Positions 1 to 30,845 of a stretch of DNA of 32,000 nt are shown here, in pieces. Made by a program: the position numbers and the translations under genes. Origin of the DNA: an uncultured bacterium (GTDB lineage: Bacteria; Auribacterota; JACPWU01); NCBI GenBank assembly GCA_964640155.1, contig CAZXEQ010000003.1:325498-357497 (forward strand), given 5' to 3'. Position 1 is the first letter of the stretch; every line of letters starts with the position of its first letter. Under the pieces are notes generated by a model that saw only the letters and a program-made list of their open reading frames with translations, ran no database searches and was not told the DNA's origin.

Positions 1-600
1 GGAGAAATCATTCGAACGACAAAAGGAAGTCCAGGTTATCTTCATGTCGCAATGCGCCTTTTTGTTTCTCAGGGCTGGATGACAAGAAAAGGTGAGGAGG
101 GTACGGATAATCTGACCTATACCTTGACAGAGGACGGAACTTATATTTTGTCACTTCTGGATTATTATGGGCCTGTGGCTGAGTTTATTGATCAAGCGGT
201 TGGAATAGATGATTATTTGTTCGGGAAATCACGTGCCCCTCCTGCAGATGGACAAAAAAAATCTTATGCGCAGCTGATAGAACTCTCTAAAAATCAATGG
301 AATTTGCCTCCCGAAACAGATTCTCGAAAGAAAATGCTTCGCGAACGTGTGATTCAACAGTTAAACGGAATGCTTTTAGGTCCCACCATGGTTGCTTTAG
401 GAATGCGTGGCGTTTTTGATCAATTTAATCCAGAAACACATTCAGTCACAATAAATCAAATTCAAGGGAATGCGAAACATCTTAAAGAGGCTTTTACTCT
501 TTTAGAACAACAAGGATGGTTAACTCGAAACGGAGATGTTTTCACGCTTACTCATGATGGACGATCGGCTGCAGTTTTAGCATCAGCTTATGGTGTGACT
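1..600 (+). other. Two winged-helix-like units preceding the methyltransferase (ORF-A)
   Basis: The pattern is duplicated: QGWMTRKGEEGTDNLTYTLTEDGTYILSLLDYYG (~67-170) and QQGWLTRNGDVFTLTHDGRSAAVLASAYG (~508-595). It resembles the wHTH dimerisation modules found N-terminal to some SAM-dependent methyltransferases. The call rests on pattern only. Confidence 0.3.
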
Positions 601-9600: not shown

Positions 9601-12600
9601 GGAAATGCAAAAAAGGGATTCCCGGGATATTATCAACTTTGGAGAAATGCATCAGGGGAGGAAAAGGATAAATATCTCAAGAAACTTCAGGAGATCAGAG
9701 ATTTTGCAGAACATTGGTTCTTTTTATGGAGATTCGAAAGTGACTTGAAAGAAGCAGCAAAGGGTCAAAAAGGCTCGGCAATCGATATTGCTTATGAAAG
9801 AATGGTAAAGCCGTATATAGATACTCCCTCCAAATTAGCTTTGAAAGCTCCTGTCGATTTAGGAGAGATTGCAACCTGTTTTTATGTTGTAGGGGCAAAG
9901 CGAAAAGACACTGCTTTGCAGGATAAGGCCAGGGAAATTCTTGAATCCATCAATTTACAAGAAGTTTTAAAGACAGATTCTGTCAATATTCATCGAGTAG
10001 TTTCGGCGTTTAAAAATATATTGGGGTATGAGAGGGCTAAAGCCGTTCTAGATATGATTGATCTGGCGATCATTAAGAAAGACCAGAGATTAAGAGGTCT
10101 TTATCTTTTGGTGTTTAGTCGTTTAAATGCTGAGGATGCTTTTGTAGTAGAAGCTGATTCTTTTGAACGAGATTTTCCAGATCATGCGCCTCATTATCTA
10201 GGATTAACCTATGAAGCACGTGAAAATCAGGAAAAAAGTCTCGCTTACTATGATCGAGCTTTTCAAGAAGCCCAAATTCATGGTTGGAGTGAAAAATATC
10301 TTAGAGAACACAGCCTCTGGTTGCGACCCGCTGGGATGGCGAGTGTAGAATATAGAATTAGAAGGCTTCGAGGGCTTGTAACTGATAGCGAATATCATTG
10401 GGTGGAATTGATTGATGTGCTCTCATCAAGTGGTCGCTATTTGGAAAGTATGAGACTTGCAAAAGAAAAAATGAGAAGTGTTTCACCAAAAAATCAAATA
10501 GAGCTTCAATGTCATATTGGAGCTTGCTATGAAAACATGGAACGAAGAGAAGAAGCTTTTACTGCTTATGAAGCTGCGCGACTAAAATCTACTGCGAATG
10601 TTGAGACATGGGATAGAATCCAAGTTTTTTGTGTGAGCAGTTTTCTTGTAAGACATCCAAAAGCAGGTGAATGGATAAAACATTTTTATAATGAAGCTAT
10701 TAAAACAAGAAATACAGGGATTATAGATTCCTTTAAAAATTATTTTAGAAAACATGGTCATCCCCTCGATGTAAATGCTTCAGGAGATATTACGATCAGG
10801 TTTTTAGCGCTTGAAAAAATAGTGAAAGAAGCATGTGATTTGGAAATCACTATTCAGATGCCCTTAAATATAGCGTGTTCCTCTGTGGTAGATCGAGAAA
10901 TTGGCAAAATCGTAATCCCTCATTTAAAAGAAAAGTTTCCAAATCTTGTGGGGTTTATAGGAGATGAAATTATTTCTGGTCCTCACTTTGATTTGGAGGG
11001 TAAATCTCCGGATTTTCTTCTAGGGCTTGAAGAAAAATTATCTAAGAAAGAGACAAATATTGCCGATGCTATTGAAGCAGGGACTTCCATTATAAGTTCT
11101 GGTTTAGTGAAAGATGTTAAAGCATTGGTGAATTCACTTTGGACAAGGGTTCAGGCAGGAGATGCTCAAGCAAAGATTTGGTTAGGGGCTTTGGCTCAAG
11201 TTGAGGGAGTAACTGGAGATTTTGGGGATATTAGTATTGAACTTGAAGATGGAAATAAAATAATACGATTCAAGAAAATGGAAGAAGATCTCCAGAGAGA
11301 TCATGGAGTACATGTTGATTTGGTAGTGAGAGTTTCTGAGTTTAAGGATTATGACCCGAGAGCCGTTTTAGATGAAATTGAAGGAAGAATGAGTGCGGAT
11401 ATTGAGGCAAGATTAGAAAGCTCTTCAAATGTGACTCGAGCATTATTTGAGAAATGGAAAAGTGCTCTTGTTTCAGGTTCATTAAAAGATGCTGGGGTTT
11501 TAATCAGGCCACTTTGGAAAAGAGTGAAGGCGGCAGATGCTCAAGCCAGACAATGGCTAGCAGATCTCGTGGGGCTTGAACAAGGCAGAGGAGATTTTGG
11601 AGAAATAAGGATTGAGCTAGGCGCTAAAGGGAATGAGCTTTGTTTAAATCAAGTCGGAGCTGACTTGATTGAAGAAAAGCTTTTGAGAGATGACTCAAGA
11701 GATGAAATGCTTGCAGGGCTTCAAAATGCGTTAACATTTGGACTGGTGTCGAATCCTGCAATTTTAATTAATTCTCTGTGGGCGAAGGTCGTGAGTGGGA
11801 ACCCTCAGGCTGCGTTAGCGCTTGGAAGAGTTGTTGAGACTGTTGCGGATGTAGACGGTGAATATGGCACGTTGAGGATTGAGACACGTGAGGGTGGTGT
11901 TAAAGTGTTACATCGTCGGGATTTCGAAGATCAATTTGAACAGGCTTTTGGTGAGAGAATGCCTTTTGTTCTTACTCCTGCCGAATTGAAAGAATCTGGT
12001 TTGAAAGATGTGCGTGCTGAAATAACTGCCTATGTTCAGCGTAAACTTTTAGAAAAAAGTGACGGTGAGACGCGAACAAAAGTACTTTCAGGCTTAAAAA
12101 CTTTTTTTGATTTAGGGTTAGTTTCTACAGAAACTTTAATTGAATCTTTTTGGACTGGCGCAGTCAGTGGGGATGCTCAAGCAAGAGAAAGTTTATGTGA
12201 TGTGGCTCAAATGGATGGAGTTGTAGGACCATTTGGGAAGTTAAACATTCAAGCAAGAGATGATGGTAGGAAAACTTTTCGATTTATCGAAATTGAGGAG
12301 AATTTTGAGTCAACTTTTTCATCAAAGAGCAATCTTTCGGTTTCAATAGAAGAATTTAAAAAAACAGGTTTTGATACAGTTGAGGAAAGAATAGCGGGAT
12401 GTGTTTTAGAAATATTCAAAACTGCCGGGCAAAAGGATAAAGATGTTATTGCTGGGATTGATCTTGCGTTAGAAGCGGGGTTGATTAGAAATGCTGGTGC
12501 AATAATGCGCACTCTTTTAGTAGAAGTTAAAATGGGGAATGATCGAGCTAGAAAATGGTTATGCGATGTGGCAAGACTTGAGCGAGCTAAAGGAGATTTT

Positions 12601-15600
12601 GGAGAAATAAGTATCGAATCGGATACCCGAGGAAAAGTTTTACGTTTTAAGGAAATGCAAAGACTTTTTAGAAATGCATTTGAAGAAGGAATATCATTTG
12701 TTGAACCTATTGATCAATTTGAAAAAGAAGGTTTGGCATTAATACAAAAGAGAATTGTAGGTTTTGTAGAAAAGAAAATGGCTCAAAGTGATGAAATGCG
12801 AGGGAAAATGCTCAAAGGATTTGAAGCTGCAGTTGCTTCTGGTTTAGTAAGCGATGCGGGAATTTTAGTGAGATCTCTTTATGAAAGAGTGCTTAAAGGT
12901 GAAAGTGAAGGGAGAGTTTTTCTGACAGAACTTGCGGCTCGTGAAAAAGTTTTAGGTGATTTTGGTGATATTGCAATTGAAAAAGTGGATGAACAAATTG
13001 TGATACGTTTTCGGATGACATTGGGTGAATCTACAGAGTTTACTGCTTCTCCAGAAGAGTTTGGTCAATTGAACTTGCCGAAAGCTAAAGAAGCCATTAC
13101 CCAAAGTTTTGAATCAGATTTAATGAACGAAGACAGGGGAGTTCGAGAGGCTGCGATAACTCGTTTTAAACAAACACCCATTTTTTCACTATTAGCGGAA
13201 AATCTCGTAAGATCTATTTGGGGGAAAGTGCTGCAAGGAAATGCGAGCGCAAGGCGAGCTTTATGCGTTTTAGCAAGAGATGCTGGTGTCAGAGGAGATT
13301 TTGAGGTTATTGAAATTTTAGATTCTCCTGCTTTAGGTGTAAAATTACGATTAAAAGATATGGAGAGTAAATTTAATGAGATTGTTGGAAAATCAGTTAC
13401 TTTTATGATGGATGTTGTTGAGTTTGAAGGAACTGGTTTGTCTCGCATTCAAGCGCAGATTATTTCAGGACTTGAAAGGGGATTGTTATCCGATGATGAG
13501 CCAATTCGAGCAGCAGCTTTTGCTGGATTCAAGAAAGCTTTAGAATTTGGGCTTGTAACCGATGCAAGTATTTTGGCTAAACCTCTGTGGGAAAAGGCTG
13601 CAAAGGGCGATGCTTCGGCAAGAAACGATTTGTGTGATTTCATTGCAGCGGGCCATTTAAAAGGAAACTTTGAAGGGTTTAGTGTTGTAGAAGATGGGAG
13701 AGCAGTAAGGCTAAGTGCAGCAGAAAAAGAATTAGGAGAGGCATTTCAAGGAATTAATCTTACGATTTCAATCGAAGAATTTAGAGCTTCAGGTTTAGCT
13801 GGAATACAATCAAAAATAATTCAGTATGTCATCGAAAAATTGGAAAGTGTTGATGAAGCTGAGCAAGATAAAGGTATTGTTGCGCTTCAAAAAGCTTTAC
13901 AGACACATATATTGCCTGATGCACGAGCTATCGTGAGTCAGCTTTGGAAAAAAGTCGAAGCAGAAAATGTGCAGGCCAGAACAGCTTTGGTCAAACTTCT
14001 TTTAAATGTTGAAGGAGATTTTGAAGAAGTTGGGATTGAAACTGTTGGAGAGAAAAAAGTTTTGCACTTGAAGGAAGAGGAGAGAAAGTATCAGGAAATA
14101 TTTGGGGAAAAAATAAATATACTTGTTCCTGTTTCCAGATTTTTAAGTATTGGTTTAGATTCGACTGCTCAATCAATCATCCAATATACTGAGACGCGTT
14201 TATCTGTTGCGGATGAAAATGCTCGTACACGGATATTTGCTAAATTTAAAAATGCTATAGATCAGGGTTTGATTAAGAATGCGAATGATCTGGTTGGTGC
14301 TCTTTTAGATAGAGTCATTAGTGGTAAAGAAGAAGATAAATGGGCTAGAGTTGCTTTAAGCAGATTCTTATCTCTTAATTGGGCTGAAACTGAGTTTGAT
14401 GGAATTGTTATTGAAAAGAGATCAAAAGGTAAAGGAAGTGATGAAGAAAAAGTAATTCATTTTTTAAGGATTGAAAATGAATCAAAGAAAAATTTTTCTT
14501 TAGGTAAAAAGGATATTCTTTCCATTACTTTAGTGGAGCTAGAAACACAAGGGAGTGAAGGAATTCTTAATAAAATAATGGGTTTTATTAAGAGTGAACG
14601 AAAATATCTTCTTGAGATTTTAGATGAAGTAAAGTTAAGAGAATTATTGCGTGAAGGATTAGAAAATAGAGATATGGAAGATCTGGTTGTAGACTTATCT
14701 TATTTTGCAGCAAAGAAATTAAGAGAAACAAGGATTACATATCTTCCTTTAAATTCTATTCGTGAATTATTGAAGGATCAAAAATGCGAGAGAAAAGATC
14801 TTACACAAGTTTTAGAAATGTTGCAGTCTTTGAGGCGCTTGGCTGGCGGAGGAAGTGTAAGTTTTAAAAAAGTAGAGGAAGAAACGCAAGATGTATTAGT
14901 TATTACTCTTCCTGCTTCAGTTCCAAGAGAAACAATGAAGCAATATTTAGACAGAGAAGATGTAAAGGGCCGTTTAGATCCTGTCATCTTAGGTTATGCA
15001 AATGAATGTGAATCTAAGAAGGCGCCTATTTATAGAGTTATTTTAAGTGATGGTTCTCTAGTAGATAGTGGGATTGTGGATCGTGGAACTTTAAAAAGTA
15101 AACAGATTTTAAAACGACTTCCTCAGAGAGGATATGCAAGTTTGGAGAAAATAGAAGGAGAGAAGGGAGGTGTATTAGTATTTAATCTTTCAGATCTGAT
15201 TTCAAAAGAAACTATAAAGCAATATTTTGAAGAACAAAGGGTAAAAAGTTATTTAAAATTTATTATTGAGAGATATGTGGATGAATATGGGTTTGAGAAA
15301 GCGCCTTCTTATCAAGTCCTTTTAAGTGATGGTTCTCAAATAGATGATGAGGGTGTTAAAGAAGAAATAGAAGTTATCATTAAAGCTATTATTAATGAAA
15401 GAAAAAGGATGGCTGAGGAAGCTGCGGCTTCTAAAAATGGTGAAACAGCAATTGATGGTAATGGATTGAATGGTGGCGCTGGAACCAATGGTGCTAATGG
15501 CGCAAATGATGGTATTACTCATGTAGAAGCGGGGAGTGTTGGTGTAGAAGTGGTTATTGGAACTGAGACTGGAGCATCTGAAACAGAAACGGGTGATGGA

Positions 15601-17679
15601 CGAGGATTTTCTAGTTTACAAAAAGAAATCTATAATAGACCTGTAAGAGAAGGGTTAAAGAGTGGGGGGTGGGTCGGAGCAACTTTTGATAGAGAGAAAG
15701 TCACGACTGTATCTCGGATTGCCAATGATTCTGGAGGGGAAGACTTTAATTCTACTCAAACTTTAAATGCTAATGATCAGAAAACGTTAACTCAAGTTAT
15801 TGAATCTTTATCTGAAGAAGACAGGGCTCATCTTCAAGGATTAGAAGAGTTAGGGGGCAAAGTCACGGTTGTTTTTATTGATGGGCTGGATGAAGCAGTA
15901 AAGGCAGAACTTCGTGAAAAAGGGAAAACAGTTCCTTCTGATTGTTATGGAAGTCATTATGGTTTATCACGTCCACAAATTTATCTAGATAGAAATTTAT
16001 TAAAAGATCCTATTCAACTGCGAATACATCTGCATCATGAGTTAGCCGAGCGTGAAGCTGTGATTCGTGCTCTTGTCTCACCAGGGTATCCCGATTGGCG
16101 TAAGAATCGAACAGATCCTAATGTTGTTAAAATTATTCACACAATGACCCATCAAAAACACAATGAACTTCTTCTCGAAGAGAGAAGAATGCCTTCGTCA
16201 CCAGCGTATGGAAAAGAAAATGCTGAGGTGGAAGCTTTACTTCATCAGCTTGACCATTCAAAAAATATTTTTTGGATGTATCTTAAGAATGATGCCAAAG
16301 CTCGCCAAATTATGAGAGAGAGGCTTTATAAGTTACTAATTCAGGGACATTTGCGTGAAAGGATTAAGTCCAGACTTTCTAGTCAAGGTTTGCAATCTAT
16401 TACAGTGACAATGGGCGGAGCATCTTTATGGCGTTCAGAAAAGGATACGACTTTAGATGTAGATATATCAATTCTTACCGATGGCGATGTGAAGGATCAG
16501 GGAATATGGAGATCGGATGATTTTCTAGATATTGACTTTTCAATTTTAGGGCGTGAGGCAATTCGTCGTAAAACAGAAACAAGATTTTTAGGGCTTTTGG
16601 AGTTAACAAGCCTCACCATTATTGGCGATGCAGGATCTAGGGATTATTCTGTCGAAGACTTAGCTGAAGTGGCTGAACTTTTCATGAGAAAAGGGGACAG
16701 TGCATCTTCTCTTGGTGACACAGAAAAACAGGGCAAGAAATATTTGATGGCGTACGTACTTCTACATCATTTCTTGAGTGAAAAAGTGCGTCGAAAAGTT
16801 TCGGATTGGATTTTTGATGGGATACCATTTGAGACTTATTTCCTGAAATATTTTAAAGGTGAAATCAGTCATTTGCCATGGGGATTGGAAGTAAGTGATA
16901 GAGAAGATCGTTTCTCGGAGGTTTCTGGCATTTTATATAGAGAGCTCTCAATTTTGAGAACGAATGCTATTTTTTCTCAGCTGAGAGATATTCTTAAGTC
17001 TGACGGGACGGAATTTATAGAAGCATTAGATAAAAAATTGGTAGATATTCTTAATCATGATTATGCTCATTTAGATGAGCGTACGAGAGATCGTTTGATA
17101 AGTGGGGTTCTGAAAAAAATTTATGAATCGAAACATCCACTTGTAATCTCTCAAGAATTTGAACGGCTTCTCAGAAAAGAAGGTTTCTCTGAATTTGGAA
17201 TTGCAGGTCTTGAAGCCTTGGCTGGAACGAAATTTTTTATACAAATAATGCATCAGGTTGGAGAAGGACGCGGATGGTATGAAGATAGTCAAATGCATAG
17301 GCAGTTTATAGAAATATATATGCGATCCCTGCTAAAGGCACAAGGTGTAGATATGCCATCTGGAAGTGCAAATAAATTGATTGCTTATGCTCTGGCGAAG
17401 TTAACAAATGATTCAGCTTCCTCATTGCCCAACGAATCTTTTGATGCATTTTTGAGAAGAAAAGGATTAGAATTTCTTTCGGATCCTTGTACAACGTCAG
17501 ATCAAAGATCTCAGAGGCTTCGCCAGCTTGCCGAACGTATTGCTGTTTTATGCCCAGATGCTGAAACACCTATGATCTCAAAATTGGTTCAAAGCGAATT
17601 AGCCCGTATGTTGCCCCCAGCTCGGGTTTCAAGTATTTCGAGGACTCCTCGAGAAGCCGCATTTGCTCAAGCGGCTTAA
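1..17679 (+). CDS. Giant multidomain protein, 5'-truncated by the window edge (at least 5,892 codons visible). Contains methyltransferase, SpoT-like HD, TPR-like scaffold, repeat arrays, domain X and an NTase-like domain.
   Basis: Frame 1 is uninterrupted from nt 1 to TAA at 17677-17679, in AT-rich DNA where stops are frequent by chance. The 17 codons before the first Met (nt 52) are also open. That Met sits inside a unit (HVAMRLFVSQGWMTR) that parallels a second copy (LKEAFTLLEQQGWLTR, ~nt 480-530), so the real start lies upstream. Enzyme motifs and in-frame protein repeats occur throughout, and the opposite strand carries only short ORFs. Confidence 0.96.
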   Translation, partial: GEIIRTTKGSPGYLHVAMRLFVSQGWMTRKGEEGTDNLTYTLTEDGTYILSLLDYYGPVAEFIDQAVGIDDYLFGKSRAPPADGQKKSYAQLIELSKNQWNLPPETDSRKKMLRERVIQQLNGMLLGPTMVALGMRGVFDQFNPETHSVTINQIQGNAKHLKEAFTLLEQQGWLTRNGDVFTLTHDGRSAAVLASAYGVTTSYLPLFSKLKELLKGQSREALFPRDKNNNETHVNRPMNVWASGGAHIAYFKEADKMIIEIFNRPLEEQPRGIADMGCGDGAFLIHLHEIVMRTKRGEKIKETLTKILELEREPALIKDGGAKHQEYLLAKAEYEKYKLVIVGADFNKEPRIITQGNLEKAGIKDAKIIFGNINDPKKYAEDLRALGLDPKSLLHVRSMLDHNRPYVTPKNTDHIRADRKADSGSYVNDGQVIPNNQLQQNLVEHLEGWQEHCVGDAGLLVIELHTIPPELAATKIGDTLATPYDAHHGFSDQYIAEIPTFVGAATEAGLELVEQKAFPTTTPEAATVSINYFRASAKKKVQVSWARSFGKVYAVHDGPDGIYQALRSEITKKDPQFNFDLLEKAYRFGAEKYRDIRHDGRPYIVHPLEIALYLVRVLGIVDQDAILAAILHDLVEDENVLLNEIKEMFGENVRALVDDLSEDSSYLEEQDKVYKAQNGQELTGKLAMKIEHIERVDKKSGKLCIIIKIVNRLHNLLSNEYPVRKANYGMNLLEIQRWRVFLDHHVSDIPPPLMEDIRYFLGRNKKSPDLTPEGAEITVTHDERNAPLGKRIKDSEVTELSIDEDGSLKAALVIHDSNKSESERIRDSRKWKVEDVKKAGTKLLSARNKLMQTLEARLANPESSLAKTYQYLIAAGKIENQEAFKNLLLEKAKQMSLLVVGDEQDLLSAVIHQDGPYMHCRRGVSGRPPALWMGYITLKRMSEEMLTRALLDEALHVAFPEEEHRDKKGNGTLLHDQELYEHCDQILRFANIDYIYQKMYQAQQGIIGNLEILRMDIDTISEEDILALKKIADEHPSDRISLDSREEIERCIGISRRFFDEARRIVQKLPSYLEDDVQEIAEEIRDAIRISSEEMNKNLDLAYRQWLEHRFFENPGESQPITPPAAFCQFDAAPNSLDAIMTEIRKAYGKNRFDEVLRLGSSLADAIQKGLAIPDDVHVMIGKGFLDRARRMKTQGKIENAIRDFDRAIESFVTMRDKGAVKVGEASVEKPVLIEEVSREIVVYAEGYVEKEKENSREIPLEVHFALGRAYLWSAICEKSEGNIAKAMQHCARAMDFLTHYAAATQTPVVRGAALLGARKAPTQGFNDNAMLYLSQAMIENGIIQMFAGSYDAARQIFQQTLTSNTRLGEKKAELQKFVQICKDFISVDKEIVQFSGSKDADASSLLGKLADLESRTRNNEDLPCAAAQIFLYRWMIYWKLKDASQAETNFQKALESRDDRFLIAFRSLINAMSKAKVLWNRDFLQAIAAKKGQPFLRRFLREIVKDYYRSLDLKEFREAVMEVLGFKSFREYVEWLLQEEQERAVVGVAPKKADVGSPINHPGLVAPLIEAIQVLPSDDERKVLAARPDISATPVLQAALRGEIRPIADVIRISLELRDELEKIQKIDVEVGDQIEIRQKCIDIAKKFKDVWLFTESDLVSAFWDKFFTVFSGEMNPDIEEALKIGLAWIERHSHKSHEHQRSYMYYQCGQIYYMTNLRAEATACFQKVIEQSSSAELKIRSYFSLGSLLYLEVRDLEDGAEKTSKLKQAKDLVARTLTQEALKIGAIDASVGHMMLSYICAELCEYKEAYEHLMNAKTYPGNFLYAKRKFLKSFGERFESLTSGEDLKVYKDFLVFACKQENQELRDQLIRFRSVKNRAWVRAVMEVLSNKGIALKQREAAIAFLRGMDLETESAGLIGILREQAGFALKQQPHFLWEGLELLRTCPTPEAKAFIQEILDNGNYAKAAGYRVEKINTIAKARDQYESLPDVFEVSDERAKTSKYCLTRKEWSQMLLDYWPSDSEWDEYVLERESSKLSDKFERLSVHEIRKQIEKAREEGLAYDAIIGQLEALNVSRINVNEELKNSQIRLARAQKLMDEGNFSEAAVMLYEILTGRSRVRVVGLEMIIAHERNGEDKDVFVVVLKAWELLERANYFMETRPGDSMPTLEYAKALIEKWKDKDEELRTKDPVDIMEVVRALYFLERPQDALRVLELIPPVFFDNYGYFALWRLRLMFKTDDDRFLGEYERVKEMTDPKAKNLLGKFCRERGLFSESMEAFQDAYTGADFKLTNTNETRPGAFIDAVQAAQVPIREVFEDAFLSCFDMMLGSSLRNKGADFVRVHLHENAFADMILMSAEMLYEAGCYLEALNLLNQRLNQIKEKKHLIEYHQCRGKILAALNRDDEALKAYEEAVKIDASKFEHWRDLIGIYYEKKDRSNTIRCIKRAMSVGASAETSYCVEDILKRVLGGEDDSKLWLADLLSDHSIASPVEGIVFGGEGEERNVQFTALEAQVEKVFGAKINFVFSENDIKTKNISDEIFNKIKTATKTKSPYLEEVLGEGMFNAMVQEAMRADCLGEILNLLFSEAASNITVSKGKGVAKAGRRNETLKVDGPIINAKLINMGVQVIQRLKIQGDTSLLEKIAKGPWVAETPEFQKALKGEVVRVSTAALTPDAQGPPSPGKDPDATASEVSGDEDAAILAALKECIQAYSSNQTLLAFQKALELAPRFKNLSNNPTKNPKDLETFAGEAAVLIDILSKYGDIRFDASLEEGLKAVLDWTVRAGPAFKILRVLAVHYRGKLYLKAQQFAKSRAFFATALALDPSEVKNVLPDIAEAYFQEMRMSSDVNQRRKLAQEAIPVIENDSSCNSLIALGWFYAEVGSYDKVFGVIKKLNAQRAVLAKGGKDQEKVDVDLIFRSMMARCFETLREKDIETQVRFIQVLISNQLESAFAETLERGKEQGPLWTQALIIVLNQEMSSTEKDRLIQLLKGADFRGAEEQWLEILRQKADLSDAKKKEAFFKFAIPVSARCFSLEVRDFLQTLKPGFSSSKDTTLAQAIDQAVASIEGNQAIETKISEGTSYLTLKEWQASLRRELPLAGEWDEWMLEVETAKFLEEFPWMKARKIRDELVKARQSKLDIEAVRFNLKTLEEEIQRQFFKDKNLSQLESIEQEIHKLVENGQWDEAFGYITLAREGNAKKGFPGYYQLWRNASGEEKDKYLKKLQEIRDFAEHWFFLWRFESDLKEAAKGQKGSAIDIAYERMVKPYIDTPSKLALKAPVDLGEIATCFYVVGAKRKDTALQDKAREILESINLQEVLKTDSVNIHRVVSAFKNILGYERAKAVLDMIDLAIIKKDQRLRGLYLLVFSRLNAEDAFVVEADSFERDFPDHAPHYLGLTYEARENQEKSLAYYDRAFQEAQIHGWSEKYLREHSLWLRPAGMASVEYRIRRLRGLVTDSEYHWVELIDVLSSSGRYLESMRLAKEKMRSVSPKNQIELQCHIGACYENMERREEAFTAYEAARLKSTANVETWDRIQVFCVSSFLVRHPKAGEWIKHFYNEAIKTRNTGIIDSFKNYFRKHGHPLDVNASGDITIRFLALEKIVKEACDLEITIQMPLNIACSSVVDREIGKIVIPHLKEKFPNLVGFIGDEIISGPHFDLEGKSPDFLLGLEEKLSKKETNIADAIEAGTSIISSGLVKDVKALVNSLWTRVQAGDAQAKIWLGALAQVEGVTGDFGDISIELEDGNKIIRFKKMEEDLQRDHGVHVDLVVRVSEFKDYDPRAVLDEIEGRMSADIEARLESSSNVTRALFEKWKSALVSGSLKDAGVLIRPLWKRVKAADAQARQWLADLVGLEQGRGDFGEIRIELGAKGNELCLNQVGADLIEEKLLRDDSRDEMLAGLQNALTFGLVSNPAILINSLWAKVVSGNPQAALALGRVVETVADVDGEYGTLRIETREGGVKVLHRRDFEDQFEQAFGERMPFVLTPAELKESGLKDVRAEITAYVQRKLLEKSDGETRTKVLSGLKTFFDLGLVSTETLIESFWTGAVSGDAQARESLCDVAQMDGVVGPFGKLNIQARDDGRKTFRFIEIEENFESTFSSKSNLSVSIEEFKKTGFDTVEERIAGCVLEIFKTAGQKDKDVIAGIDLALEAGLIRNAGAIMRTLLVEVKMGNDRARKWLCDVARLERAKGDFGEISIESDTRGKVLRFKEMQRLFRNAFEEGISFVEPIDQFEKEGLALIQKRIVGFVEKKMAQSDEMRGKMLKGFEAAVASGLVSDAGILVRSLYERVLKGESEGRVFLTELAAREKVLGDFGDIAIEKVDEQIVIRFRMTLGESTEFTASPEEFGQLNLPKAKEAITQSFESDLMNEDRGVREAAITRFKQTPIFSLLAENLVRSIWGKVLQGNASARRALCVLARDAGVRGDFEVIEILDSPALGVKLRLKDMESKFNEIVGKSVTFMMDVVEFEGTGLSRIQAQIISGLERGLLSDDEPIRAAAFAGFKKALEFGLVTDASILAKPLWEKAAKGDASARNDLCDFIAAGHLKGNFEGFSVVEDGRAVRLSAAEKELGEAFQGINLTISIEEFRASGLAGIQSKIIQYVIEKLESVDEAEQDKGIVALQKALQTHILPDARAIVSQLWKKVEAENVQARTALVKLLLNVEGDFEEVGIETVGEKKVLHLKEEERKYQEIFGEKINILVPVSRFLSIGLDSTAQSIIQYTETRLSVADENARTRIFAKFKNAIDQGLIKNANDLVGALLDRVISGKEEDKWARVALSRFLSLNWAETEFDGIVIEKRSKGKGSDEEKVIHFLRIENESKKNFSLGKKDILSITLVELETQGSEGILNKIMGFIKSERKYLLEILDEVKLRELLREGLENRDMEDLVVDLSYFAAKKLRETRITYLPLNSIRELLKDQKCERKDLTQVLEMLQSLRRLAGGGSVSFKKVEEETQDVLVITLPASVPRETMKQYLDREDVKGRLDPVILGYANECESKKAPIYRVILSDGSLVDSGIVDRGTLKSKQILKRLPQRGYASLEKIEGEKGGVLVFNLSDLISKETIKQYFEEQRVKSYLKFIIERYVDEYGFEKAPSYQVLLSDGSQIDDEGVKEEIEVIIKAIINERKRMAEEAAASKNGETAIDGNGLNGGAGTNGANGANDGITHVEAGSVGVEVVIGTETGASETETGDGRGFSSLQKEIYNRPVREGLKSGGWVGATFDREKVTTVSRIANDSGGEDFNSTQTLNANDQKTLTQVIESLSEEDRAHLQGLEELGGKVTVVFIDGLDEAVKAELREKGKTVPSDCYGSHYGLSRPQIYLDRNLLKDPIQLRIHLHHELAEREAVIRALVSPGYPDWRKNRTDPNVVKIIHTMTHQKHNELLLEERRMPSSPAYGKENAEVEALLHQLDHSKNIFWMYLKNDAKARQIMRERLYKLLIQGHLRERIKSRLSSQGLQSITVTMGGASLWRSEKDTTLDVDISILTDGDVKDQGIWRSDDFLDIDFSILGREAIRRKTETRFLGLLELTSLTIIGDAGSRDYSVEDLAEVAELFMRKGDSASSLGDTEKQGKKYLMAYVLLHHFLSEKVRRKVSDWIFDGIPFETYFLKYFKGEISHLPWGLEVSDREDRFSEVSGILYRELSILRTNAIFSQLRDILKSDGTEFIEALDKKLVDILNHDYAHLDERTRDRLISGVLKKIYESKHPLVISQEFERLLRKEGFSEFGIAGLEALAGTKFFIQIMHQVGEGRGWYEDSQMHRQFIEIYMRSLLKAQGVDMPSGSANKLIAYALAKLTNDSASSLPNESFDAFLRRKGLEFLSDPCTTSDQRSQRLRQLAERIAVLCPDAETPMISKLVQSELARMLPPARVSSISRTPREAAFAQAA
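697..1606 (+). other. Class I SAM-dependent methyltransferase domain (ORF-A)
   Basis: Motif I IADMGCGDG (817-843). Post-I acidic strand VIVGADFN (1021-1041). Further matches are LLHVRSMLDHNRPY and LLVIELH (~1375-1395). These give the Rossmann-fold order expected for class I methyltransferases, with an unusually long insert between motif I and post-I. Confidence 0.75.
1720..2225 (+). other. RelA/SpoT-type HD domain ((p)ppGpp hydrolase-like, HD_4 type) without a synthetase domain (ORF-A)
   Basis: RHDGRPYIVHPLEIALYLVRVLGIVDQDAILAAILHDLVEDENV...FGENVRALVDDLSE...IVNRLHNLLS. H is at 1816-1818, HD at 1894-1899, ED at 1906-1911 and NRLHN at 2131-2145. This matches the RSH hydrolase signature (HP..vA, LHDvvED, FG..Va.LV, aDRLHNm). 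Confidence 0.85.
6019..7590 (+). repeat. Paralogous ~530-aa module, copy A (ORF-A)
   Basis: It aligns by eye with copy B along its whole length. Matches are CLTRKEWSQMLLDYWPSDSEWDEYVLERE / YLTLKEWQASLRRELPLAGEWDEWMLEVE; MDEGNFSEAA / VENGQWDEAF; KDPVDIMEVV / KAPVDLGEIA; EYHQCRGKILAALNRDDEALKAYEEA / ELQCHIGACYENMERREEAFTAYEAA; NVQFTALEAQVEKVFGAKINF / ITIRFLALEKIVKEACDLEITI. Confidence 0.7.
7171..7353 (+). other. Example TPR-like repeat pair in the ORF-A helical scaffold
   Basis: EYHQCRGKILAALNRDDEALKAYEEAVKIDASKFEHWRDLIGIYYEKKDRSNTIRCIKRAM fits the TPR consensus (small/large residue pattern, A..y..Al..d). Similar units occur near 3780-3900, 5090-5260, 8400-8530, 10190-10270 and 10500-10590. 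Confidence 0.5.
9259..10860 (+). repeat. Paralogous ~530-aa module, copy B (ORF-A)
   Basis: Same alignment as copy A. The offset between matched anchors is constant at about 3.24-3.27 kb. Similarity is at the protein level only (divergent). Confidence 0.7.
11041..14600 (+). repeat. Array of 10 tandem ~120-aa protein repeats (ORF-A)
   Basis: Recurrent unit: ..GL(V/I)xxaxxLvxxLWxxVxxGdaqArxxLxxla...GdFGxIxIExxxxgxxvlrFkxmExxFxxxFgxxisfxvxxeEFxxxGLxxixxxIxxyv. Anchor codons are at 11101, 11476, 11740, 12115, 12478, 12841, 13186, 13549, 13906 and 14266. Spacings are 345-375 nt, with one short 264-nt unit. Confidence 0.85.
14853..15348 (+). repeat. Tandem duplication of a ~93-aa module (ORF-A)
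   Basis: SVSFKKVEEETQDVLVITLPASVPRETMKQYLDREDVKGRLDPVILGYANECESKKAPIYRVILSDGSLVD (14853-15066) versus YASLEKIEGEKGGVLVFNLSDLISKETIKQYFEEQRVKSYLKFIIERYVDEYGFEKAPSYQVLLSDGSQIDD (15133-15348). Confidence 0.75.
15433..15603 (+). other. Gly/Asn/Thr/Glu-rich low-complexity linker (ORF-A)
   Basis: NGETAIDGNGLNGGAGTNGANGANDGITHVEAGSVGVEVVIGTETGASETETGDGR lies immediately before the GFSSL start of domain X. Confidence 0.7.
15604..16110 (+). other. Domain X, copy 1 (unrecognised conserved domain; ORF-A)
   Basis: GFSSL...VVFIDGLDEAVK (15868-15900)...SDCYGSHYGLSRPQIYLDRNLL...LHHELAERE (16030-16056)...PDWRKNR. The same ordered motifs occur twice in ORF-B. Confidence 0.7.
16330..16660 (+). other. Pol-beta-superfamily nucleotidyltransferase-like domain (ORF-A)
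   Basis: ITVTMGGASLWRSEKDTTLDVDISIL fits hG[GS]-x(9-13)-Dh[DE]h. GG is at 16414-16419 and DVD at 16456-16464. A further acidic strand, DFLDIDFSIL, lies about 20 aa downstream. Confidence 0.55.
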
Positions 17680-17786
17680 TTTTGTGAAAACGCTGTCTTC
17701 TAAATGTAACCCGTGTATTTCCTACTCTCTGTCAGACGAATTTGTAGAGAAAATTAAATGTGCAAAGAGCAGGGAATAAAAAGTAT

Positions 17787-17876
17787 ATGAAGAAATATTT
17801 TTGCAAATTCATAACCATTCTTTTATCTCTTTTTCTCTTTTTTGATTTTACGACAAGAGAAGCACAACTTTTTGCT
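17787..17876 (+). other. Sec-type signal peptide of ORF-B
   Basis: MKKYFCKFITILLSLFLFFDFTTREAQLFA|SD has a basic n-region, a 12-residue hydrophobic core, and small residues at -1 and -3-like positions. There is no lipobox. Confidence 0.7.
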
Positions 17877-20800
17877 TCAGATTCTTCAGATCGATTGAAA
17901 GCAGGAGAGATTTTAAAAGAGTCGATTGACTTTAAAATTTCTGACTTTCAAAAGGCACCTCCAGTAGCTATTCAAGGTATTCTCACGTCTTTTCTAAAGT
18001 ATTTCTTTTTGCAATCTTATGAATATTCTATTTCCTTGCTCACGCACCGGCATATCTCGTTTCAAGGGATTCCTGTGCCTTCACTTTTTGATGAGATGAT
18101 GGAGACTTTATGGGAATTAATGAGAGAGCAGGAGTGGAAAGGTTTAGCTCGAAGATATATGAGAGAGCTCCGCTTGCGGTTAGTTGAGGAACATCAAGGG
18201 GATGTTAAAAAGGTGCAAAAGGAGCTTTTGAGAAATATAGATATTTGGGAGGGGAATAAATTAAAACTCTCTCAGAAGAAAAAGGGCTTTGCTGTTCTTT
18301 TTGAAAGTATAGATGATGAAGAGGAAGAGAATTCAGGGCTCTCACAAAAAGAAAAGGATTTCTTTGCGCTTCTAAGGCAAGAGGCCTTAGGACAAAAAGG
18401 GCCAGCAGCTCAGTTACTTCCAGAGCAACTAGAGAAAGTGATACATAGAAGTATGGCTCATGCGAAGACCGTTATGAAAATATTTGAAAGATTTCTACAA
18501 AATCAAGTTGCACAGGTGAGGCCCATTTATGAAAGAGCAAAAGTAACTCATGACGAAGAAATAAAAGCTGGAGAGTTAATATTTGAGATTTTAGATTTTA
18601 GGCCTGATTTTAAGAGAGATCCTCCCGATTTTTCAGGTCAGAAATTTGCCGAAGAACTTTTTGAGAAAAAGATTAAAAATTTTGGAGGCCGTAAATATTT
18701 ATTTGATCAGATTTTGTTTGAGCTGCGTAATTTAGATGATATGGATTCTAGGGCGTCATTAGTATTGATGCATGTTTTGGCCTGTTTTTTTAAAGAGGAT
18801 TATTTATCGAAACAAGGGGGAGTGACTTTATCCAGGGAACAATTTGAAAGACTTTGGAGGATTTATCGTTCAATCGACTATGATTGTGCGGGAGTCGCCA
18901 TGGGTTGCATTGCGCAAGTGATTTATGATCCAAGAATTAAAGTTGTAGGATTTACTCAAGATCAAATCCATTCACGGGCAAAAAAAGATTTTGAAATATT
19001 TTTAAAACGATTCATACACAATCCCAATCCGCGCACTTACAATCTATCTATTTATTGGTCACAGTATTTTTTGACTCAGGATTCTGAGTGGCTTGATGAA
19101 GTGATTGAAAAGATGAATTCTTTTGGTCGTCGGTCAGAAAAATTTAATCTAATTTTACGGGGATTATTGTCTAAGGTTTGTCAGGATGGAAAATTACGGG
19201 AAAATATTAATGAGTTTGCGAATAAATTTATTCAACCTTTAGATATTGCTGTATCCACCAATACTCCTGAAGATGCATGGAAAGCTATTTGGGGCACCAC
19301 CGATCAACCCCATCTTGAAAATGCGAAAAAATTTCTAGAAACAGTTACTTCTTTAAGAGAGCTTTATCCTTATCAATTGACTTCGTCTGATGCTACACCT
19401 CCACTTCAATTTGCTATTAAAAATGGTATTTATTTCCCAATTGGAGGAGGGCTTTATGTGACCCCGATAACTCAATCTTTTAGGCGACATACTGTTTTTA
19501 AATTAACCAATAGTGGACAGGTTACTTTTGCTTTTGAAGTATTGATTCCTGGTGAAAATACTGATCGACGTCTGATTGCAACTGAACAAAGGTGGAAGGT
19601 TTCATCGGAGTTGCTCGAAAGCTTTCCTCTGCATAATTATTGTCCTACTCCTCTCGCAATGATGGATTTGCCAAAGGGTTCATACTCTCTTTATGGCCAG
19701 GAAATTGAATTTAGTTCTAAAACTCCTTTGTCGGTCATGGGATTTCAATATGGAGAACAAGAAGATGGGAAGCGCCTAGACTTTATAACAAGACCCATAT
19801 TGGATGAAATTGCTAAAGAATCAGGTTGGGATTCAGATGCTTTGTCTTTTGAAGTTGCCAAACAAGTAACCGAACTTACCGCAGCAACTCATGCTCTGGG
19901 GTATGTGGGGCATAATGGTAAATCTTCTGATCATCATACTGGAAACTTTAGATTGATTTTGACAGGAGATAGAGCTAGGCCCATCAAAATAAAGTTGGTT
20001 GGGGATTTTGAGGCTTTCACCAAAGTTAGTTATGAAGATCAGATTAATAAAATGGGGAATGATGTTAATAATATTGTTCCCAGACTTAGCCTAATTTTGG
20101 ATATGGATGCAGAAAAACTTAAAAAGATGTTTGAAGAAGCTAGAGATTTACCCCATATACGTGAAGTTTCTGATAGAAAAAGAAAAGAATCGCTCAAAAA
20201 TGATTTTCGAGCTCTTCTAGTAATAAATCCAGATAACAAGGATCATTTAGAAGAATTATTAGCTTCTGTAAATGTCCGTGATTGTGAGCAATCTGTTCGA
20301 GAACAAAATAATGTAATAACTCTTGGTTTTTTCTTTGAGGATGAATTTTTAGATAAGCATGGAGGTCTTGTTTTATCTCAAGCCCAGTATGATCGGTTAT
20401 GGAAGATTTATAATGAAGCGGCAGTAGCTCCAGAATATGCGGCGATGATATTGGGATATATCTCTAAAGTTTTAAATGATGATAGGATCTCAATTGAAGG
20501 TCAGCCTGATAAGAAACAAGTTCGAAAAACATCTGCACAAAAGATAGTTTCTGCTTTAGAGATTACATCTCCTACAGATAATCCTAAACAGGCTTGGAAA
20601 GCTATTTTTGGAACAACTGATCAGCCTCATGTTCAAAACACTCAAAAGTTTATAGAAATGGCGACACTCTTAAGAAAAATTTTCCCTTATGAATTATCAA
20701 AAGAGGACCCTCGTTCTCCTTTAAAATATGCATTAGAAGAGGGGATTTATTTCCCTATAGGAGGTGGACTTTTTATGACACCTGTCACCGAATCTTTCAG

Positions 20801-23800
20801 ACGACATATGGTGTTTAAATTGGATGATGAGGGACAAGTGCTTTTCGCTTTTGAAGTGATGATTCCAGGTGAAGAAGACTATCGTCGAGATATCGGAGCA
20901 GAAAAAAGATGGAAAGTTGCTACCGATATCATTCAAAATTTTCCAGATGAAGAATATTGCATTGTTCCGATTGAAAAAGCTGTTTTGCCCTCTGCAACAT
21001 ATCTCCTATATGGGAAATCGGTGAGTATTAATGCTTCACAAAGTTTATGTATTATGGGTTTTGAATATGGAAAGCAAGAAGATGGAAAAGGTGTTTTTGA
21101 TGAGGACGGGAAACGTTTGGAGTTTGTCACACGCGCTATGGTTAATGAGATAGCTAAAGAAGCGGGCTGGGAACCAGAAGCTTTAGCTTTAGAAATTGCA
21201 AGACAAGTAGCTGAGCTTACGGCTGCAACACATGTTTTGGGATACGTTGGCCATATTAATGAAGGAGACGAAAGAGATGGATTCACAAGATGTGATCATC
21301 ATACCGGTAATTTTAGATTGATTGTAAGAAAGGGGAAGGACGTTCCTATTAAGGTAAAGCTGGTGGATGATTTCCGTTCATTTAGAAAGATTAGTTTTGA
21401 AGAAAAAGCAACGGCAGTTTTTGTAGATCATGCACACATTGTGATAGGAATTCCTGATATTTCAATGATTGGATTAAGTGAGATTTTATATCTTAGTGAA
21501 ATTGATTTATTGGGTATGTTTGAAGAAGCGGAAAATAAGCAAATCTTAAGTAAAATTAAAAATCTTGGAAAGGGAGAATTTTTTATTGATTATGGAAAGA
21601 GAAAGGATGATCTTAAAACAATTTTTAGAAATTATATAATGACTATGTCATATAAAGAGCACTTTCGTAATCAATTACTAGATGCCATTCTTCAAGAATC
21701 CACCGAAAGTTTTGCTATCGAGAATCTCCTACAAATTCTTTCCTTCTTTTTTGATGAAGAATTTTTACCTGAACCTCAAAAAGTAGTTTTAACCCCAGAG
21801 CAATATACAAAAATGTGGAAGATTTATGAAAAAGTCGAAAATGATCGAGACAATGCTTTTGTAATTTTAGATTGTCTTGGGAAGATTTTAAGCGATGAAA
21901 GAATTATAGTTTCAGGATGGGTGCAAAAATCTGAGGGTTATTCGCTGATGCAGGGAAAGTTTAAGCGATTTTTAGACCAGAAAAGGGTAGATCCAAAATT
22001 TCAAACACGAGGATTTGGGTTTGTGGGAGTAGCAACAACTCCTTGGGTTAATTTTTTTATTCGAGCCGGAGTAGATGCGGTAGAGGCTTTAGATGTGCCA
22101 TGGGATAACATGCTTTTGGACGGTCTTATTTATCCTTTATGCCAGGAACCAGTCATGAAAGCTATTCGCCAAAGACTTTTGAAGCAAATTGTGCCAGGGT
22201 CATATAAATTTGATGTGAAGCCTGTCATCCCCGGGATCGATGGATCCCCGACTGAAATCTTCGGGGACGGATCCATTCAACAAAATGGATTCCCGACAGA
22301 AACACTCGGGAATGACAGAGTGGTGGAAGCCCTACAAGCTATTTTTGGAACGCAGGAACATCCAAATATCGAAAATTCTCGAGAATTTTTTAGAGTGGCG
22401 ACACTACTGAGAAAAGTTTTTCCTTATGAGTTATCAAAAGATGATCCGCGGCCTCCGTTACAGTATGCCATTGAAGAAGGTATTTATTTTGAAATAGCCC
22501 CAGGGCTTTATATGACTCCCATTACAGAATCTTTCAGACGTCATATTATTTTTAAGATGACTGAACCCGGGAAAGTTGATTTTGCTTGTGAAGTATTGAT
22601 TCCAGGGGAATTAGAAGATCGAAGAGATTTTGCTATAAACATGCGGAAGAAAGTCAGTTCTAACTTAAAAGAAGTTTTTGGAGATGAATATTGTGTCGAA
22701 ACTATTTTTGATGTCCAATTCCCTTATGGAAAATATCAAATGTATGGAGATGAGATTATATTTAATGAGAAGACTCCTCTAAACTTGCTTGCATATGCTT
22801 ATGAAGATGGAAAGCGAATGGAATTTTTGACCCAAGATATGCTAATAAAACTTGCAGATAAGATGCAAATACGAATAGAAGACTTGGAGATGAAGATAGC
22901 AAGAAAAGCTGCATCTTGCGTAGCTGCCACACATGCTTTAGGTTATGTGGGACGTAAAGATAAATACGCAACTTCTGAAACTGGTGCTGAATTTGTGATT
23001 GGAACACGATTTGACCACCATTTAGGTAATTTTCGTTTAATCGTTAAAAAAGAAGATAAAAAAATAACTATCGACGTAGAATTAGTAGGAGATTTTGGTG
23101 CTTTTCGGGATTCCACACATTTGCAAAGAGCAGAGGCATTTAGAAAACAGGATATTCGAGCTGTTGTTGAAGGAGAGAATCGCTTTCCTGGATTAGTTAA
23201 ACTTTTAAATATTTCAAAAGAGAAGTTGTATGAGATCTTTGAACAGGAACAGAGAAGATTGAACACTGAAGTTCGGGATCTTTCAGAAATGGGAGGTTTA
23301 GCGGCAAGACCTTTGGGCCCGGGTTTCTCTGGCCTTCCAGATTCTCTTGAAGAATCACCTTATCGCCCTGTTATTGAAGAAAAGATGGATAAGAAACAGT
23401 TCAAATCAGCAAGTTTTTCAAATGGAAAGTTTTCAAGCTCTCAAGTAATGCATGAGAAGACAGGTACAGAAATAGGACAATCTGTTACGGGGGATAACTT
23501 AGACTTTTTAAATAATGTAGAGTTTTCTTCTGAAGACCGGAAAGCTTTAGAAGGTCTTACTATTATTTTTATTGACGGCTTAGATGAAGCAGTGAAGAAG
23601 AAAGCGATAGAACTCGGTCTTACTATTCTAGAAGATTGCAAAGGAGCACATTATGGAATTTCTCGACCACAAATATATTTAGATGCTAGTTTGCTAGATC
23701 CCACCAATAAAGAAGATTTAATACGCCAACTTCATCATGAGGTGCAGGAAAGAAAAGCAGTATTAGATATTCTCAATAGTCATTTTAAAAATTGGAAAGA

Positions 23801-30638: not shown

Positions 30639-30845
30639 ATGCGAATGAACAGAAAATCAATTAAGTATTATGATTGGGAAGAAACCAGATCAGAACAGGT
30701 TTCTCCAATGACCTCAGAAAAATGGTTTTTAACTCCCCGCAATGTTTCTCAGATTGATCTTTCTGCATTGAAGAAAGAAGTTAAATTAAAAGCCCCAAAA
30801 CAGGCTTCTTCAACCGCCAGGGGAAGAAGTCGGGTATCTGCTTGA
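30639..30845 (+). CDS. Small hypothetical protein (68 aa), doubtful
   Basis: ATG..TGA ORF in the intergenic space after ORF-B. It is basic and Ser/Lys-rich with no recognisable motif. No Shine-Dalgarno is visible. The only support is an extended -10-like TGCTACAAT 10 nt upstream of the ATG. Confidence 0.3.
   Translation: MRMNRKSIKYYDWEETRSEQVSPMTSEKWFLTPRNVSQIDLSALKKEVKLKAPKQASSTARGRSRVSA

Follow-up and report, generated by a model that had tools for sequence, protein, structure and literature searches.

We identified a protein domain, termed domain X, that lies at the N-terminal boundary of diverse enzyme units within exported mosaic proteins. Domain X is a previously undescribed, well-folded family, restricted as far as sampled to the mosaic giants of Candidatus Omnitrophota and Auribacterota. 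It was recognized in a stretch of 32,000 nucleotides (the window) from an uncultured bacterium (GTDB lineage Bacteria; Auribacterota; JACPWU01), which corresponds to positions 325,498 to 357,497 of contig CAZXEQ010000003.1 in GenBank assembly GCA_964640155.1. The window contains two long open reading frames (ORFs), ORF-A (nt 52–17679) and ORF-B (nt 17760–30590), both on the + strand, to which all window coordinates given below refer. The reading frame of ORF-A continues without interruption to the window's first base; i.e., ORF-A is cut by the window start. The public full-length ORF-A protein, P0003, comprises 6,580 amino acids (aa), of which ~705 N-terminal residues are missing from the window, and the public version of ORF-B, P0001, comprises 4,267 aa and starts at the Met of MKKYF. 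Both ORFs are on a Logan contig of 32 kb from run SRR8893623. Residues of ORF-A were numbered from nt 52 and those of ORF-B from nt 17760. As a tentative explanation, we propose that X, at the head of each cargo unit, is a minimal-zincin-like module with a metal-dependent function (HExxE plus His) and is possibly self-processing.

A preliminary description of this DNA had proposed three homologous copies of a ~165-aa domain, and translation and BLAST confirmed all three in their frames and places. The proposed core was correct, but its ends were not; homology continued for ~28 residues past the 3′ ends, adding a helix with a conserved His, and the domain comprises ~195 aa. Using BLAST and hidden Markov model (HMM) boundaries, the full copies were placed at 15589–16194 (X1, ORF-A aa 5180–5381), 23316–23891 (X2, ORF-B aa 1853–2044), and 28512–29099 (X3, ORF-B aa 3585–3780). 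The copies were recovered with E-values of 1e-25 to 1e-78 in self- and cross-BLAST of ORF-A and ORF-B; in pairwise BLASTP, X1 matched X2 at 2e-31 and X3 at 3e-27, and X2 matched X3 at 3e-78. That is, the similarity among the three copies is far beyond chance. X2 and X3 were 58% identical (79% across the first 96 residues) and had been duplicated inside ORF-B along with ~50 upstream residues, whereas X1 was 36–40% identical to either. No additional X copy was found in ORF-A or ORF-B by iterated HMM with filters off.

A profile of the three window copies, the search proposed in the preliminary description, was scored by HMMER against 1.84 billion representative proteins. X was detected in 49 proteins, 23 of them with E < 1e-10, and association with domain boundaries was seen among them. 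Two were the window's own ORFs, and the remainder were mostly mosaic proteins of 1.3–7.2 kaa, the longest with 7,165 aa, or short fragments. All source-named X proteins were called 'hypothetical protein' and came from metagenome-assembled genomes (MAGs) of Candidatus Omnitrophota, except the JGI/IMG entry P0017, which carries the label 'signal transduction histidine kinase'. When one genome per species was scanned, two loci with X were found, in an Auribacterota MAG (65% identity), which is the genome locus closest to the window, and in an Omnitrophota MAG (28% identity). Three local HMM iterations then recovered the whole domain of ~185 positions, beyond its C-terminal half, yielding 58 full-length copies in 47 proteins with one to four copies per protein. 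Copies from different lineages were only ~25–35% identical and kept the same residues.

The preliminary description had regarded X as unrecognized, and the database comparisons agreed. Neither single copies nor 41 members of the family matched Pfam-A 2025, NCBIfam r20, or PHROGs v4; the only matches with E < 0.01 across curated families were those of two members to one unannotated PHROG, and no curated family was matched by more than two of the 41 members. Profiles of the whole domain and of its core had no sequence match in the PDB apart from the kinetoplastid ribosomal protein eS8 (E 0.002), which was rejected as spurious as the conserved residues were unmatched and the match had no echo in Foldseek. 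A word-indexed protein search with 3-copy and 41-copy alignments also gave no match; the searched collection contains X proteins, those of the window among them, indicating a limit of the index and not absence of the family. None of the three outcomes that the preliminary description had named as speaking against it was observed in full, these being a confident match to a known non-catalytic domain, a lack of conservation of the Cys, His, and HHE residues in homologues, and a lack of association with domain boundaries in other proteins.

Residue conservation was counted over the 58 copies and is given in X1 numbering. The conserved residues were His5302 (57/58), Tyr5303, Arg5307, Gln5309, Tyr5311, Asp5313, His5329, Glu5330, Glu5333, Arg5334, and His5370. 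Of these, ten with polar or charged side chains (H, R, Q, Y, D, H, E, E, R, and H) were kept in 47–57 of the 58 copies, and the family-wide signature runs in the order RG..G(L)PN..Y, HYG..R.Q.Y.D, HExxER, and a further His. The N-terminal junction motif of X1, GRGFSSLQKEIY, lies at 15598–15633, as defined by the family alignment columns. Its consensus is S-R-G-x-x-G-L-P-N-x-x-Y, in which the Arg was found in 39/43, the Gly in 44/44, the Asn in 44/49, and the Tyr in 44/49 copies. The most conserved block, HYGLSRPQIYLD (15955–15990), contains the His, Tyr, Arg, Gln, Tyr, and Asp on a loop and β-strand, with equivalents at 23649–23684 (X2) and 28854–28889 (X3). The HExxER motif (His5329, Glu5330, Glu5333, and Arg5334; 54, 52, 55, and 53 of 58 copies, respectively) is located on a long helix and reads HHELAER in X1 (16033–16053), with equivalents at 23733–23753 in X2 and 28938–28958 in X3 (YHEVQER). 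Finally, His5370 is located on the last helix (16156–16170, His codon 16159–16161; equivalents at 23853–23867 in X2 and 29070–29084 in X3) and was present in 50 of the 52 copies covering this column. In the alignment, the near-invariance of H, HE, E, R, and H is the pattern typically seen at catalytic or metal sites.

These counts upheld part of what had been read from three copies. The conserved His and His-Glu proposed in the preliminary description (His5302, His5329, and Glu5330) extended to the whole family, as did the statement that the motif is not the zincin HExxH. The supposedly invariant Cys and the first His of 'HHE' were each conserved in less than 60% of the family; the first His is already Tyr in X3 (Y-H-E), the family motif is HExxE(R) rather than 'HHExxE', and many copies lack the whole Cys segment, e.g., ...ENQSGHYG... 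and ...GQKAHYG.... The helix (V/I)(V/I)FIDGLDEAVK, listed as a shared ordered motif, was a variable insertion absent from many homologues. Two readings of window motifs were discarded on the same grounds: an esterase GxSxG in 'GFSGL', in which the Ser is frequently Glu in homologues, and a PD-(D/E)xK motif in 'DGLDEAVK', a segment that is missing from many of them.

Six copies showed a degenerate His-Glu pair, namely the three copies of P0012, that of P0045, copy 1 of P0010, and that of P0008. The R-G junction was gone in four of these (P0012 ×3 and P0045) and was A-G in a fifth. All six retained HYG..R...Y.D, and the Gln was retained in all but P0045, which has Asp. The joint loss of the His-Glu pair and the R-G junction is suggestive of a link between the two, with few independent events.

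We next consider the position of X relative to the other units. The preliminary description had placed X at module boundaries, after linkers and ahead of different enzymes, and this held in the window and in other giants. X1 is preceded by a G/N/T/E-rich linker and followed by a C-terminal unit of ~490 aa; X2 precedes a kinase-like stretch and then a weak match to GT2; X3 lies ahead of the fourth 'K' repeat module of ORF-B. The labels given earlier to these cargos could be checked only weakly: GT2 downstream of X2 was matched in Pfam below threshold only (E 0.011–0.024), and the 'NTase' and 'K' units had no Pfam or PDB-sequence match, although K is a real four-fold repeat. PDB sequence searches of all three downstream units were uninformative, and ORF-B as a whole had no Pfam match at E ≤ 0.01. 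In other X proteins, the following enzyme could be named. Pkinase begins 11–14 aa past X in two units of P0002 (E 6.5e-47 and 3e-42), PGM_PMM_I begins ~10 aa past X in P0033, and HATPase_c_2 lies ~70–80 aa past X in P0021; in P0030, a Response_reg (receiver) domain ends 24 aa ahead of X. Further domains in X host proteins included PGI, transaldolase (TAL), AA_kinase, FHA, and HEAT. Across 41 full copies, paired Wilcoxon tests showed that the 30 aa upstream of X contained more G/S/P/T/A/N/Q (p 0.005) and fewer hydrophobic residues (p 0.00015) than the 30 aa downstream. Therefore, given this polar upstream bias and the closeness of the downstream enzymes, X is tied to the unit that follows it and flexibly linked to the unit that precedes it. 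X can be used as a searchable module-boundary marker, with 58 copies before kinases, sugar-phosphate enzymes, ATPases, and nucleotidyltransferase-like units.

The structure of X1 was predicted by AlphaFold from a 41-sequence alignment (model mbdf11c15bc77) with a predicted local distance difference test score (pLDDT) of 93.5 and a predicted template modelling score of 0.90; a model from three sequences reached a pLDDT of 61 and was not used for fold search. As modelled, X is a compact α/β domain. Its N-terminal part consists of two short strands, a helix, a β-hairpin, and two helices, followed by strand 93–97, the variable helix, strand 130–134 (QIYLD), helix 141–163 (HExxER), and helix 177–199, which bears the last His. 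In the alignment and the model, this His (50/52) lies on the helix after the motif helix, 37 residues past the motif Glu.

This order of elements resembles that of the minimal zincins (minigluzincins/selecase, SprT-like, and ImmA/IrrE M78) and the gluzincins; namely, a strand, a short loop, a long helix with H-E-x-x-ligand, and a helix with the third ligand. We infer the term 'zincin-like' from this order in the model, from the i/i+4 His...Glu with a His on the next helix, and from weak Foldseek tails; it is not a finding in itself. The non-significant tails of the Foldseek results recurrently listed minimal zincins, i.e., selecase twice and LTA4H twice in the PDB, and IrrE twice, a SprT-like protein, and a 'proteolytic enzyme' in BFVD. 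In addition, one of the 41 members matched the Pfam SprT-like family (PF10263) at E 0.095. X differs from the minimal zincins in an extra N-terminal subdomain of ~90 residues with its own conserved RG..PN..Y motif.

Our tentative explanation would proceed as follows. X forms the N-terminal 'head' of a cargo unit, with a polar flexible linker before it and its last helix ~10–70 residues from a varying enzyme. The His and the second Glu of the long helix's HExxE motif, together with the His of the following helix, may form a 2-His/1-Glu metal site on a strand-helix-helix core arranged as in minimal zincins, and the first Glu of HExxE may act as a general base. A ligand set of the gluzincin type is possible in X, except that Glu would take the place of the second motif His (HExxE instead of HExxH) and His that of the distal Glu. 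We speculate that this site works in cis, with the S-R-G...P-N junction or the upstream linker as its target, and that long exported precursors are cut into X-plus-enzyme units or that each unit is inactive until cut.

Several observations weigh against this proposal. Neither sequence nor profile nor fold comparisons matched X significantly to any peptidase. Structure prediction and Foldseek, also suggested in the preliminary description, gave a confident model and no significant known fold (best E 1.2 in the PDB and 0.059 in BFVD). When the X core was aligned by hhalign with a 20-sequence SprT alignment, the probability was 0.3% and the motif helices were unaligned; this was a weak test, as the SprT alignment was shallow (74–88% identity). 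The consensus H-E-x-x-E-R is not the zincin HExxH; the +4 position was Glu in 55 of the 58 copies and His in none, and we know of no characterized zincin with an HExxE variant. The clustering of His5329, Glu5333, and His5370 is predicted from helix positions only. The window's own copies in ORF-B also fit poorly: the junction Arg is replaced in X2 (GPGFSGL, 23316–23336) and X3 (SQGFSGL), and both copies lack the junction Asn as well. The three tandem copies in P0012 lack H/E/E with HYG..R.Q.Y.D intact, and because they retain this block, it has a role apart from the putative metal site. P0022 is a stand-alone protein of 572 aa with X and a single HATPase_c cargo, and there is little in it to release. 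Together, the tandem copies in P0012 and the single-cargo P0022 argue that cargo release cannot be the whole story.

These observations also bear on an alternative that we hold just as tentatively and consider about as likely, in which X has no catalytic role and serves as an adaptor or docking 'handle'. Its partner might be shared among the hosts, such as a scaffold, an export or translocation machine, or a target-cell component; otherwise, X might bind a small ligand or a metal. X would then localize or regulate the fused enzyme and might be a zincin-derived pseudo-enzyme; the N-terminal domain of anthrax lethal factor, which binds protective antigen, is a precedent of this kind. Such a role is consistent with X being invariably N-terminal to its cargo and closely joined to it across unrelated enzyme types, with the tandem copies in P0012 and P0010 and the retained block in the former, with the presence of X in P0022, and with the lack of any detectable relation to an enzyme family. 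The hosts also have further features that resemble sorting signals, i.e., leaders at the N-terminus and [AS][ALV] at the C-terminus. However, the conservation of ten polar or charged residues at ~25–35% identity is more like that of an active or metal site than that of a protein–protein interface. A processing module and a non-catalytic adaptor are equally compatible with the architecture.

It is rather unlikely, in our assessment, that X is an independent, non-proteolytic enzyme, e.g., a metal-dependent phosphoesterase, nuclease, amidase, or modifying enzyme, that was duplicated together with its linkers. The conserved His/Glu/Arg/Gln/Tyr set suits catalysis, unrelated enzymes abound in the mosaic proteins, and no peptidase homology was detected; however, the fixed order of linker, X, and enzyme with one to four copies before different partners would be unusual for such an enzyme, and the conserved N-terminal junction motif points to a role at the boundary.

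Far less probably, X would be an autoprocessing Cys-His protease of the type found in MARTX and large clostridial toxins, i.e., a cysteine protease domain (CPD). The CPD (peptidase C80) is a Cys-His protease activated by inositol hexakisphosphate, which is present once per toxin and cuts several sites between effectors. X shares its logic, in that it is located within very large, exported proteins with several enzymes and could release the cargos, and DC(Y/K)G(S/A)HYG was present in all three window copies. However, the segment is missing in many copies of the family, the Cys and His are only four residues apart, and neither Pfam Peptidase_C80 nor any other model was matched; a protease of this type was excluded, therefore, because the Cys is not conserved. 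X further differs from the CPD in occurring in one to four copies, each on its own cargo. Lastly, an origin of the X similarity as a by-product of recent internal duplication or a low-complexity linker has next to no probability; it would account for X2 and X3 (58–79% identical and duplicated with their upstream residues), but was refuted by the divergence of X1, by the same residues being kept in 58 copies from 47 proteins of different lineages, and by the confident globular fold.

The pre-toxin or releasing-peptidase domains of polymorphic toxins and the proteases of viral polyproteins are likewise modules located directly upstream of variable cargo. Signatures of HINT, PrsW, ZU5, caspase-like, and Tox-MPTase domains were not found in X by Pfam models. 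In contrast to the cargos of polymorphic toxins, those of X are mostly housekeeping-type enzymes (PGM, PGI, transaldolase, and kinases) and not toxins. No defining feature of the CPD, the pre-toxin releasing domains, or the viral polyprotein proteases was present in X. X may be classed as a head or processing domain between the modules of exported multi-enzyme proteins, with processing as a proposed role only; its family has no detectable relatives. Even as a mere structural head domain, X is useful for annotating and parsing giant mosaic proteins. If X is self-processing or serves in docking, it would represent a new hydrolase or adaptor family, and small recombinant constructs would allow the question of cleavage to be tested directly. 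The conserved residues provide a short list for mutation.

Two weaker X-like segments had also been suggested in the preliminary description, at 26480–26760 in ORF-B and 2688–2880 in ORF-A. The former belongs to a separate, second unannotated family, termed Y, and the suggestion was correct insofar as Y is probably a distant relative; the latter was an unrelated repeat. By jackhmmer, the Y family comprised ORF-B aa 2861–3060 (26340–26939), two copies in P0049, and one in P0032, with the pattern LhIYIT..DHExxE..RH..H. The core of Y in ORF-B (LHIYITKAFW...LAEAIDHEWFEEREA...) is located at 26622–26771. When Y was compared with the strand-helix core of X, hhalign gave a score of 21.8 (P 0.0033), against a maximum of 18 in 150 column shuffles, and the Y core is probably a distant relative of the X core. 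The segment in ORF-A (aa 841–1000, 2572–3051) is a separate unit with the pattern ..HCRRGVSGRP.A.W.G....LDEALH.AFP.E.H.., is unrelated to X, and occurs twice in the ORF-A orthologue P0005. A bolder version of our proposal, which we consider improbable, is that X is the first of a new group of cis-acting metal-dependent processing domains that cut exported 'polyproteins' of Omnitrophota and Auribacterota at the conserved S-R-G junction into X-plus-enzyme units, with Y as a second branch of the superfamily. If this were true, the giant mosaic genes would be the bacterial counterparts of viral polyproteins or MARTX toxins, each cargo having its own built-in protease.

We also assessed the ends of the X host proteins. 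An N-terminal hydrophobic segment was present in 25 of the 34 large X members, compared with 5.6% of internal windows. Among X proteins of at least 1000 aa, 27 of 38 ended in [AS][ALV], compared with a dipeptide background of 3.9% (binomial p ~1e-29); ORF-A ends in -QAA (17665–17676) and ORF-B in -AAA (30576–30587). This shared tail looks like a C-terminal sorting or recognition signal, and it often follows a motif such as ..KPVDF....EW....A..... An in-frame ATG upstream of P0022 (720–836 in locus L006) encodes MNSFSRQLIALVFACLLTVDPALA.., a typical Sec signal peptide. The start called for P0022 probably lies too far downstream, and export of this small X protein is likewise probable. The leaders, the tails, and the signal peptide of P0022 suggest that X hosts are exported or membrane-anchored. 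The extra N-terminal residues of P0003 include a signal-peptide-like start, and its N-terminal domain, (I/V)(Q/R)D(A/L)H..N/D..AQ ... GGFH, is common to 12 of the 49 X proteins. A further small protein, P0038 (355 aa, locus L005), has a good Shine–Dalgarno sequence and starts almost directly at the X core without the R-G...P-N junction; a P-loop (GKS) kinase-like unit follows X, and this was the only case seen with essentially no polypeptide upstream of X.

Omnitrophota and their relatives are characterized by giant mosaic genes. X hosts showed the features of the Omnitrophota domain-mosaic class, i.e., an Omnitrophota origin, unrelated enzymes in one ORF, and an N-terminal membrane or signal segment. 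In two reports (10.1101/2023.11.21.568195; 10.64898/2026.06.07.730766), giants with Archaeovorin-type domain mosaics are described from the same phylum as the X hosts, and both groups have sugar-metabolism, kinase, methyltransferase, HEAT/TPR, and GT domains together with N-terminal hydrophobic segments. They differ in length, as 'giant' in the 2023 preprint denotes at least 30,000 aa (10.1101/2023.11.21.568195), whereas X proteins have 1.3–7.2 kaa (ORF-A 6,580 aa and ORF-B 4,267 aa). That preprint leaves cleavage of the Omnitrophota giants into smaller products open, as information on cleavage points was lacking. A term search of both reports found no X, boundary module, or cleavage points.

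The remaining units of the two ORFs were as follows. The K ('kinase-like') module of ~350–500 aa occurs in four copies in ORF-B (E down to 6e-71), at ~18690–23300 and ~29370–30450 (ORF-B aa ~311–1850 and ~3870–4231); in self-BLAST of ORF-B, for example, aa 901–1188 matched aa 3897–4169 with an E-value of 4e-58. Its motifs are PPL.YA...GIYF.IG..LY.TP.T.SFRRH and DHH.GNFRL...VGDF, and the module was visible by eye in P0013, P0015, P0021, and P0045. A 68-aa ORF with no recorded Pfam match, located just 3′ of ORF-B (30639–30845), was gene-called on the contig and ends in -RVSA. In ORF-A, approximately ten tandem repeats of ~120 aa (25–42% identical) lie upstream of X1 at ~11026–14630 (aa ~3659–4860), and the array is also present in P0005. 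The Pfam domains of ORF-A were an AprA-like methyltransferase, HD_4, and TPR. The region 52–2000 encodes an AprA MT2-like methyltransferase (E 6e-81) and an AprA winged helix, followed by HD_4 (RelA/SpoT-type HD), and it is unusual for an AprA methyltransferase and HD_4 to be paired at the head of a giant protein rich in TPR.

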